Source: Eledone cirrhosa
Lineage: Eukaryota
Length of the DNA: 64,000 nucleotides
Assembly (NCBI GenBank): GCA_964016885.1
Contig: OZ024740.1
Coordinates: forward strand, 338,272,001 to 338,336,000
Direction of reading: 5' to 3'
In this document: positions 22,865-24,899 of the stretch, piece after piece
Layout: the number at the start of each line of letters is the position of its first letter
How positions within the stretch are numbered: position 1 is the first letter of the stretch
Notes under the pieces: model-generated
Seen by the model: only the letters and a program-made list of their open reading frames with translations
Told to the model about the DNA's origin: nothing
Database searches by the model: none
Translations under genes and position numbers: made by a program

Positions 22865-22866
<2 letters not shown>

Positions 22867-24899
22867 TGGAATAAATGCTCTGAAATAGCGATATATATGT
22901 GAATATAGACATAGAATATTCGAAAATATTCTGTATGTTTATAATAAACATTTTGAAGACCTAATCGCTATAGAATAGAATACGTCACGTATTACAATTA
23001 GATTCTCGATAAAAGCAAGGGAAGTAATCTACGCGTTTCATTCTCGTTAGAAATCATCAGGACTACATATCCAGTGCTTTTATCGAGAATGACACAGCTA
23101 GAGACTTATAGAATACTTAGCTGTGTACAGGAACTGGTTTGAAAGAGCGGTTGCCGGTCCGGCAGAAATTAGAAATTGGAATAAATGCTCTGAAATAGCG
23201 ATATATATGTGAATATAGACATAGAATATTCGAAAATATTCTGTATGTTTATAATAAACATTTTGAAGACCTAATCGCTATAGAATAGAATACGTCACGT
23301 ATTACAATTAGATTCTCGATAAAAGCAAGGGAAGTAATCTACGCGTTTCATTCTCGTTAGAAATCATCAGGACTACATATCCAGTGCTTTTATCGAGAAT
23401 GACACAGCTAGAGACTTATAGAATACTTAGCTGTGTACAGGAACTGGTTTGAAAGAGCGGTTGCCGGTCCGGCAGAAATTAGAAATTGGAATAAATGCTC
23501 TGAAATAGCGATATATATGTGAATATAGACATAGAATATTCGAAAATATTCTGTATGTTTATAATAAACATTTTGAAGACCTAATCGCTATAGAATAGAA
23601 TACGTCACGTATTACAATTAGATTCTCGATAAAAGCAAGGGAAGTAATCTACGCGTTTCATTCTCGTTAGAAATCATCAGGACTACATATCCAGTGCTTT
23701 TATCGAGAATGACACAGCTAGAGACTTATAGAATACTTAGCTGTGTACAGGAACTGGTTTGAAAGAGCGGTTGCCGGTCCGGCAGAAATTAGAAATTGGA
23801 ATAAATGCTCTGAAATAGCGATATATATGTGAATATAGACATAGAATATTCGAAAATATTCTGTATGTTTATAATAAACATTTTGAAGACCTAATCGCTA
23901 TAGAATAGAATACGTCACGTATTACAATTAGATTCTCGATAAAAGCAAGGGAAGTAATCTACGCGTTTCATTCTCGTTAGAAATCATCAGGACTACATAT
24001 CCAGTGCTTTTATCGAGAATGACACAGCTAGAGACTTATAGAATACTTAGCTGTGTACAGGAACTGGTTTGAAAGAGCGGTTGCCGGTCCGGCAGAAATT
24101 AGAAATTGGAATAAATGCTCTGAAATAGCGATATATATGTGAATATAGACATAGAATATTCGAAAATATTCTGTATGTTTATAATAAACATTTTGAAGAC
24201 CTAATCGCTATAGAATAGAATACGTCACGTATTACAATTAGATTCTCGATAAAAGCAAGGGAAGTAATCTACGCGTTTCATTCTCGTTAGAAATCATCAG
24301 GACTACATATCCAGTTGTAATACGTGACGTATTCTATTCTATAGCGATTAGGTCTTCAAAATGTTTATTATAAACATACAGAATATTTTCGAATATTCTA
24401 TGTCTATATTCACATATATATCGCTATTTCAGAGCATTTATTCCAATTTCTAATTTCTGCCGGACCGGCAACCGCTCTTATCTAATTGTAATACGTGACG
24501 TATTCTATTCTATAGCGATTAGGTCTTCAAAATGTTTATTATAAACATACAGAATATTTTCGAATATTCTATGTCTATATTCACATATATATCGCTATTT
24601 CAGAGCATTTATTCCAATTTCTAATTTCTGCCGGACCGGCAACCGCTCTTTCAAACCAGTTCCTGTACACAGCTAAGTATTCTATAAGTCTCTAGCTGTG
24701 TCATTCTCGATAAAAGCACTGGATATGTAGTCCTGATGATTTCTAACGAGAATGAAACGCGTAGATTACTTCCCTTGCTTTTATCGAGAATCTAATTGTA
24801 ATACGTGACGTATTCTATTCTATAGCGATTAGGTCTTCAAAATGTTTATTATAAACATACAGAATATTTTCGAATATTCTATGTCTATATTCACATATA
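22865..24899. repeat. Second array of the hammerhead unit (310 bp): about 4.7 direct units followed by an inverted segment
   Basis: Unit starts at 22865, 23175, 23485, 23795 and 24105. Orientation flips at about 24315 and restarts at about 24480. There are 5 minus-strand HHRs and 1 plus-strand HHR. Confidence 0.95.
24727..24769 (+). ncRNA. Type I hammerhead (inverted arm of array 2)
   Basis: GTAGTC CTGATGA tTTCTaacgAGAAt GAAA CGCG TA GATTAC. Predicted cleavage is after 24763; the outer 16-bp stem is 24703-24718/24776-24791. Confidence 0.87.

Follow-up and report, generated by a model that had tools for sequence, protein, structure and literature searches.

The tandem array at positions 22865-24902 of the window (the whole stretch of 64,000 nucleotides from Eledone cirrhosa that was analysed) is a young, real insertion of a known class of element, a non-LTR retrozyme, in a TA microsatellite. 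Its assignment to the non-LTR retrozymes rests on features that are testable in DNA. The insertions of its family are characterized by a set arm polarity, a pair of fixed start sites, one for each arm, targeting of TA, a single haplotype per insertion and arms joined at microhomologies. They were probably generated by a Penelope-type enzyme that used both ends of a DNA break as primers to copy a single, probably circular RNA monomer again and again.

Layout of the array and its hammerhead motif

The array, and a second one in the window (array 1), contain the following features:

22761..22866, no strand: left (TA)n target microsatellite
22865..24315, plus strand: left arm, 4.7 units of 310 bp, beginning at unit position 1 (start site A)
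23003..23089, minus strand: 15-bp helix extending stem I (23003-23017 with 23075-23089), containing sites 146 and 217, at which A-to-G changes recur in other arrays
23024..23066, minus strand: type I hammerhead motif of unit 1, recognized by motif and fold, repeated at +310, +620, +930 and +1240
24309..24316, no strand: central join between the arms; imperfect microhomology (5 of 7 positions) with unit positions 133-139
24316..24479, minus strand: 164-nt re-copied segment, from unit position 279 through 310 to 132
24480..24902, minus strand: right arm, 423 nt (1.4 units), beginning at unit position 27-36 (start site B)
24727..24769, plus strand: right-arm hammerhead motif, predicted cut after 24763
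24895..24914, no strand: right (TA)n target microsatellite; the initial 8 nt coincide with unit positions 27-34
9422..11184, plus strand: array 1, a separate single-armed insertion of a 311-bp unit with an extra A, from site A

The left arm (22865-24315) was made up of head-to-tail 310-bp copies with zero mismatches between units, and 107 of the 310 bases of the unit were G or C. As the original prediction had stated, the ribozyme strands pointed outward and both outer ends of the array ran into (TA)n; the strand flip that it had located near 24315 was placed between 24315 and 24316. The internal inversion that it had described was real, but it did not consist of a single piece, being composed of the 423-nt arm (24480-24902) and the 164-nt re-copied segment (24316-24479). 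This segment creates a 171-bp direct repeat and is likely the product of a template switch at the join. Nor is the inversion, although present, a peculiarity of this array, since it is the rule in the family (124 of 141 arrays). The first-strand cDNA would correspond to the plus strand in the left arm (22865-24315), with the ribozyme on the minus strand, and to the minus strand in the right arm (24480-24902). No ORF of at least 150 aa overlapping the array was found by ORF search, and no LTR layout was visible. The array was also considered as an autonomous Penelope-like element, which was discarded because it contains no RT/GIY-YIG ORF; it behaves like a Penelope passenger. Elsewhere in the window, two 1.8-kb LINE copies, 97% identical and in opposite orientation (30931-32738 and 37163-38963), were located beside long TA tracts, and their ORF codes for a PHD finger directly after the RT domain.

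On the ribozyme strand, the hammerhead comprised a stem I formed by GUAGUC and GAUUAC, the core CUGAUGA followed by GAAA, a stem II with a U-U at its base, and a stem III of one pair within the palindromic ACGCGU. The cut in unit 1 was predicted after GUA, between 23030 and 23029, and the core, stems and GUA site were present in all six complete copies of the array. The monomer folded with z = -4.84, and none of 100 shuffles folded as well. Searching Rfam yielded no hammerhead match to the unit at either threshold, and therefore the assignment rests on the core motif, the fold and the pattern of variation. Concerning the latter, the 11 fixed variants found in the family inside the 43-nt hammerhead included none at the 14 core positions (p=0.01); they were situated at N7, in loop II, in stem I and at the U-U pair, which was restored to A-U. 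Single-unit changes in the core numbered 9 against 5.9 expected. Thus, the ribozyme looks maintained in this retrozyme family, and self-cleavage is predicted. A preprint reports in its available text that eight of nine Xenopus elements failed to cleave (bioRxiv 10.64898/2026.07.22.740005).

Each of the two window arrays was uniform for its own form of the motif, as had been predicted: the hammerhead stretch read GAAGTAATCTACGCG in 6/6 copies of array 22865-24902 (five on the plus strand and one on the minus strand) and GAAGTAAATCTACGCG in 5/5 copies of array 1. The extra A was the sole difference between the unit of array 1 and the 310-bp unit. It does lie in hammerhead stem I, in its 3' strand, which forms six pairs (one of them G-U) in array 22865-24902 and contains a bulge in array 1. 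The claim that this 1-nt variant was array-specific did not survive, since the extra A occurred genome-wide in 695 units across many arrays. A 38-mer over the hammerhead type of array 22865-24902 had 4,054 exact matches in the 3.0-Gb genome, 19 of which carry the extra A, and the exact type of array 1 was found in 19 units of three arrays. The 310-bp form is the commonest type of the family. These counts ruled out reading the extra A as an array-private indel and identified it as a subfamily marker. Segmental duplication, which the original prediction had named as an explanation that would contradict it, was checked as well: the sequence common to the flanks of the two arrays was limited to short 70-75% matches, and therefore they did not derive from such an event. 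Array 1 lacks a second arm, and at its end (11065-11184) several short re-copied stutter pieces from around unit positions 122-141 precede the TA flank.

Two-armed insertions across the family

Genome counts were obtained by pattern matching. The two end-junction patterns had 460 and 1,080 matches in the genome, and scaling these counts by the share of sampled arrays that matched gave a rough family size of 1,800-2,100 arrays and 17,000 units. A set of 140 regions was selected, 20 by the core motif (10 of these for the extra A) and 60 + 60 by the two end patterns; nearly all came from the first contig, and they represent about 7% of the family. After excluding six clusters with less than 95% identity and one duplicated copy in L098, the final set contained 141 arrays and 1,264 units, both window arrays included. 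Among the excluded clusters, L054 is a young single-armed array whose identity was lowered by flank alignment. In L098, one short two-armed insertion is present twice (1537-1783 and 3972-4218), 2.4 kb apart and with an identical join, as a local DNA duplication. No pair among 119 arrays shared both flanks at 95%.

Analysis of arm polarity in the 141 arrays revealed 123 with the order '+-', one '+-+-', 17 single-armed and none '-+'; the arms were thus head-to-head in 124 insertions. Both arms, read from the flank inward, were complementary to the ribozyme RNA, as expected for first-strand cDNA primed from the 3' end of each flank. Start site A was located at unit 304-7 (exactly at position 1 in 107 of 125 cases) and start site B at unit 27-39, the latter being blurred because unit 27-34 is itself TA. 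The two sites were 26-38 nt apart; measured from the predicted cut, they lay 127-139 and 165 nt downstream. In order to count them, each start was matched against the array's own haplotype, and two arrays cut by the region edge were omitted. One A and one B start were found in 119 of 122 testable two-armed arrays, none had AA or BB, and three had some other start. By selection, this pairing occurred in 18/19 core-chosen arrays, in 46/48 and 54/54 of those chosen by the end patterns, and in array 22865-24902; the core-chosen set, which was not picked by its ends, gave p=8e-6. Pure TA preceded 239 of 261 arm starts, a figure that is inflated by the end patterns and with which the core-chosen set agrees. 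As candidate target-site duplications, shared imperfect TA strings were detected at the flanks of 33/119 arrays, which is indistinguishable from chance in (TA)n. In L045 (1912-1971 and 7884-7950), a 14-nt palindrome-like sequence is found past the TA tract on either side, in inverted copies.

Arms had a median length of 3.5 units and a maximum of 45, and the two lengths of an insertion correlated weakly (rho 0.30). The A arm was longer by more than one unit in 53/119 arrays and the B arm in 38/119; since either can be longer, neither arm was copied from the other. Arms were joined directly in 88/123 cases, where microhomology averaged 2.3 nt (0.77 expected at random); the other 35/123 joins contained inserted bases. 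Two pairs of join coordinates recurred, each in two arrays. Near-symmetric joins were scarce (12/123 against 16 expected), which argues against fold-back self-priming as described in the available text on Penelope (PMC3846280). The two arrays of the window hinted that the RT stalls at the base of the long helix (unit 136-142), but this did not hold generally, with 7 ends observed and 5.6 expected.

An older sister family, with a unit of about 320 bp and 874 pattern matches, was also detected (L153:4317-4991, L165:3619-4017 and L171-L200). It matches the present family by 73-80% around both start sites and has the two-armed layout too. In its hammerhead-like core, UUGAUAA, a compensated change of the C3-G8 pair was recognized by eye. 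Sequencing runs of 18 organisms (X1-X20) contained 65-100% of the words of the unit, and the compared parts of X2 and X3 were identical to it; close relatives, diet or environmental DNA, contamination or horizontal transfer may account for these matches.

Haplotypes and A-to-G changes within insertions

Haplotypes were determined in the 121 arrays of at least 3.2 units. In variant counts, the first 15 nt and the last 25 nt of each arm were excluded, as were clustered changes, and the rate of single-unit changes was 3.4e-4 per base. There were 48 haplotypes, 34 of them seen once, and that of array 22865-24902 was the commonest (29/121 arrays). In 110 of the 121 arrays no variant was present in a subset of several units. 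Fixed variants were found in both arms of 83 two-armed arrays, with one instance of variants differing between arms. Fixed variants private to the sample numbered 19, in 18 arrays, and 18 of them were seen in both arms. The original prediction had regarded variants as array-private; when four of them were checked genome-wide, this held for one, found in one array only, and failed for the others, one occurring on three backgrounds (three arrays) and two marking lineages of 3 and 9 arrays. Many sample-private variants are therefore small lineages, 'private' being relative to a 7% sample. For three fixed substitutions, a single-unit parent on a matching background was looked for and none was found.

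If a linear multimer had been copied, single-unit variants should be mirrored in the two arms. With 316 units reached by both arms, mirrored variants were observed in two arrays against 32-50 expected, an expectation that presumes sources as mutated as the average array and units mutated independently. These two arrays were L150, in which both arms change haplotype after two units, and L062, in which the first unit of either arm carries the same variant. A single monomer could produce such patterns only through a coordinated switch. The two arrays indicate coupling between the arms and a template that was not always one monomer. Two further arrays, L126 (9/13) and L128 (11/12), were mixed at unit position 200. 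Repeated variants in scattered units were found in six long arrays (L049, L052, L107, L108, L120 and L130m), and therefore expansion or conversion at the DNA level also occurs. In L130m (G000:C1:97461507-97476485), which has a 45-unit arm, two linked variants were present in nine scattered units, and blocks were repeated at a spacing of about 27 units; this pattern is satellite-like expansion after insertion.

Fixed changes on the ribozyme strand were enriched in A-to-G, which accounted for 11/35 fixed sites and for 11/130 single-unit changes (p=0.001). The ratio of A-to-G to U-to-C was 11:4 among fixed and 11:23 among single-unit changes (p=0.012). C-to-U was fixed at two sites, though pairing tolerates this change equally. 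All 11 fixed A-to-G sites were located in predicted helices, against 58/91 of all A's (p=0.005). Four of them were recurrent (sites 146, 200, 217 and 258, in the contexts UAU, UAG, UAA and CAG, on 6, 6, 4 and 3 backgrounds, respectively), and the change at these sites was fixed in 25 arrays, never in a single unit, and mixed in two arrays, one of which was counted as fixed. ADAR prefers a 5'-U neighbour, and at fixed A-to-G sites such a preference did not reach significance (p=0.057). ADAR targets duplex RNA, and its neighbour preferences include a 3' G, according to the available text of PMC3113232. The A-to-G pattern fits ADAR editing of one RNA molecule that would then have been copied many times, and many edits may have been inherited from edited sources. 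Four-gamete conflicts numbered 10 for the extra A and 11 for site 146, an equal degree of homoplasy. Recurrence is therefore not unique to A-to-G, and recombination may contribute.

The original prediction had deduced the copying of a single circular monomer from homogeneity within arrays together with one fixed difference between two arrays. That argument fails, the difference being a subfamily marker. Repeated copying of one monomer is nevertheless supported by the evidence from 141 arrays, because of the one haplotype in both arms, the all-or-none variants, the few mirrored variants and the A-to-G excess on the RNA strand; the covalent circle is our inference.

Models of copying and known systems

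Under the proposed mechanism, the array would be transcribed, and the hammerheads, probably as dimers, would release monomers to be ligated into circles; ADAR would edit some A's in the RNA helices. A Penelope RT-GIY-YIG protein, possibly a dimer, would bind this RNA and cut both strands of (TA)n. Sites A and B would each give rise to one cDNA, which would pass round the monomer 3.5 times in the median and tens of times at most. Microhomology-mediated repair would then connect the two 3' ends, in some cases following a template switch, as is likely at 24316-24479. Priming of cDNA from both ends of the break is very probable, and it is highly likely that Penelope machinery makes the retrozyme insertions. 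A single monomer can be considered the likely template, and this template was probably a covalent circle. We put forward as a tentative, though quite possible, extension that each insertion records one circle, round which both subunits of a dimeric Penelope enzyme with two active sites would roll, one subunit per start site and per end of a double-strand break, and that the ADAR edits of that circle would be present in all units of both arms.

Other explanations were considered. Both break ends might prime on one uncut linear multimeric transcript, in which case uniform arrays would come from uniform sources and new variants would become fixed via short insertions that expand as DNA. The mirrored variants in L150 and L062, the DNA-level patterns in the six long arrays, the two of four checked variants that mark lineages of several arrays, and the use in vitro of uncut RNA as main substrate (PMC11167929) agree with this model. 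It is nonetheless unlikely, since mirrored cases were just 2 where 32-50 were expected, recurrent A-to-G changes were all-or-none (25 fixed, 0 single-unit, 2 mixed) where independent editing of units would be expected, the central join of a parent was found inside an arm in no array save the one '+-+-', and 48 haplotypes were each fixed in all units. A self-cleaved, unligated monomer, with the RT jumping from the 5' end to its own 3' end in each round, would allow rolling without a covalent circle; it predicts equal uniformity and fixed edits, and the two fixed 1-nt insertions 2-4 nt from the predicted cut, together with the extra A on four backgrounds, would suit it. End-to-end RT jumps usually gain or lose bases, as is known from work on R2. 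Yet no single-unit indel was found at unit 160-170 in 1,242 passes over the predicted cut site, arm ends were not enriched at that site (6 observed against 8.7 expected), and circles are the abundant form in other retrozymes in the available text of PMC7229834, which makes this explanation quite improbable.

A short insertion might instead have been expanded by unequal crossing-over, with the inversion deriving from fold-back self-priming or DNA repair. Both models have been published: a preprint favours, in its available text, local expansion by unequal crossing-over (bioRxiv 10.64898/2026.07.22.740005), and the Penelope inversion has been explained by self-priming at palindromes (PMC3846280, in part). 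DNA-level expansion in a few long arms and the correlation of arm lengths (rho 0.30) are in line with them. However, the joins were not palindromic, either arm can be longer, and the outer ends are two different fixed sites; moreover, each arm would have had to expand on its own and still match the other at a rate of 3.4e-4 single-unit changes per base, and an A-to-G excess confined to one strand is not expected from a process acting on DNA. This combination is accordingly very improbable. It is barely credible that uniformity and inversion are assembly or consensus artefacts. The lack of reads over the join of array 22865-24902 in two raw-read runs is compatible with an artefact, but the layout recurs in 124 arrays with fixed starts, unequal arms, different joins and unrelated flanks, single-unit variants were retained, and a run from another study showed identical substitutions, along with the two 1-nt insertions and with TA junctions at each start site. 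Contigs from two other runs contained the collapsed unit only.

Repeated copying of a monomer by a Penelope-type enzyme is thus the preferred reading. The approximately 2,000 nearly unmutated insertions are countable footprints for the questions of tandem copying in retrozymes and of the inverted repeat and tail in Penelope. The family supplies a defined RNA, a pair of start sites and a target with which a long-assumed copying step could be tested in vitro, and genome engineers would be interested in an enzyme that writes a small RNA circle into the two ends of a break. If the circle-plus-dimer extension is true, one mechanism would account for both the Penelope inverted repeat and its one-sided tail, the insertions would for the first time document rolling-circle target-primed reverse transcription in a genome, and RNA editing would feed heritable variation into a ribozyme element.

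Among known systems, the family resembles the metazoan non-LTR retrozymes, which in the available text of PMC7229834 are non-coding and dispersed, have a GC content under 50%, and consist of tandem 150-450-bp units that each bear a type I hammerhead. They occur in genomes that also contain Penelope-like elements, and copying of a circle into tandem cDNA is a stated hypothesis for them. Its hammerhead resembles those of the axolotl in the one-pair stem III with a palindromic loop and the U-U at the base of stem II, as far as these are described there. Cleavage and circles have been demonstrated for metazoan retrozymes in that text, whereas for the E. cirrhosa element they are predicted. The main text of PMC7229834, in its available part, makes no mention of an inverted layout, an inversion or a microsatellite, and the two-armed layout, the fixed start sites and the DNA-fixed edits are absent from the available text of both this account and the 2026 preprint. 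A search of mostly open-access literature found no published account of two-armed retrozyme insertions or of edits fixed in them. The element class is known, and the family-wide two-armed layout is a variant not found in print.

The likeness to Penelope-like elements is closer in architecture. Penelope insertions carry an inverted truncated copy and a 30-40-bp tail, often at one end only, and target (TA)n, the mechanism of the inverted repeat and tail being named as an open task in the available text of PMC8557442. A Penelope protein studied in purified form cut both DNA strands and extended them; it is predicted to dimerize, and the two adjacent internal sites at which it starts on the RNA define the tail. 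Ribozyme cleavage was dispensable in vitro, where uncut RNA was the main template (PMC11167929). The resemblance to inverted Penelope pLTRs proposed in the original prediction therefore holds, and it extends to the two fixed arm starts, whose spacing of 26-38 nt corresponds to the tail signature (PMC8557442, in part; PMC11167929). Both kinds of element share the head-to-head inverted copy, the tail at one end, the (TA)n targets and the microhomology joins, as well as an internal RT start at two adjacent sites downstream of the hammerhead (PMC11167929). Unlike Penelope-like elements, the retrozyme has no ORF and both of its arms are multi-unit. The pairing of one site per arm is near absolute in the retrozyme, whereas the two Penelope strands are alike in start site in vitro (PMC11167929), and the palindromes of Penelope self-priming in the available text of PMC3846280 were not seen at retrozyme joins. 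ORFs with RT and GIY-YIG are present in the genome in L093 and L036, with more in L035, L054 and others; among the matches listed, neither the surroundings of 12 RT or endonuclease ORFs of the fetched loci nor 30 sister-family loci showed sequence in common with the unit, so that these loci yielded no autonomous partner with a matching terminal repeat. Within the window, a 554-aa ORF (43647-45311, minus strand) has by eye a Penelope-type RT core and thumb (TMGS, RDD, YHKP), an Asn/Thr-rich tail and no Pfam match. Penelope-type 3' ends with their own minimal hammerhead were observed in L035:1-2760, L054:2-1530 and L105, in the same TA tract as a retrozyme array or just upstream of it, a proximity that probably reflects a shared target preference.

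In LINE-1 twin priming, both ends of the target DNA prime on one RNA and the cDNAs are joined at microhomologies, giving rise to a 5' inversion; the second primer anneals at a variable internal upstream site. In the retrozyme, unlike in LINE-1, the starts are fixed, adjacent and near-equally used, and the arms pass the same sequence many times.
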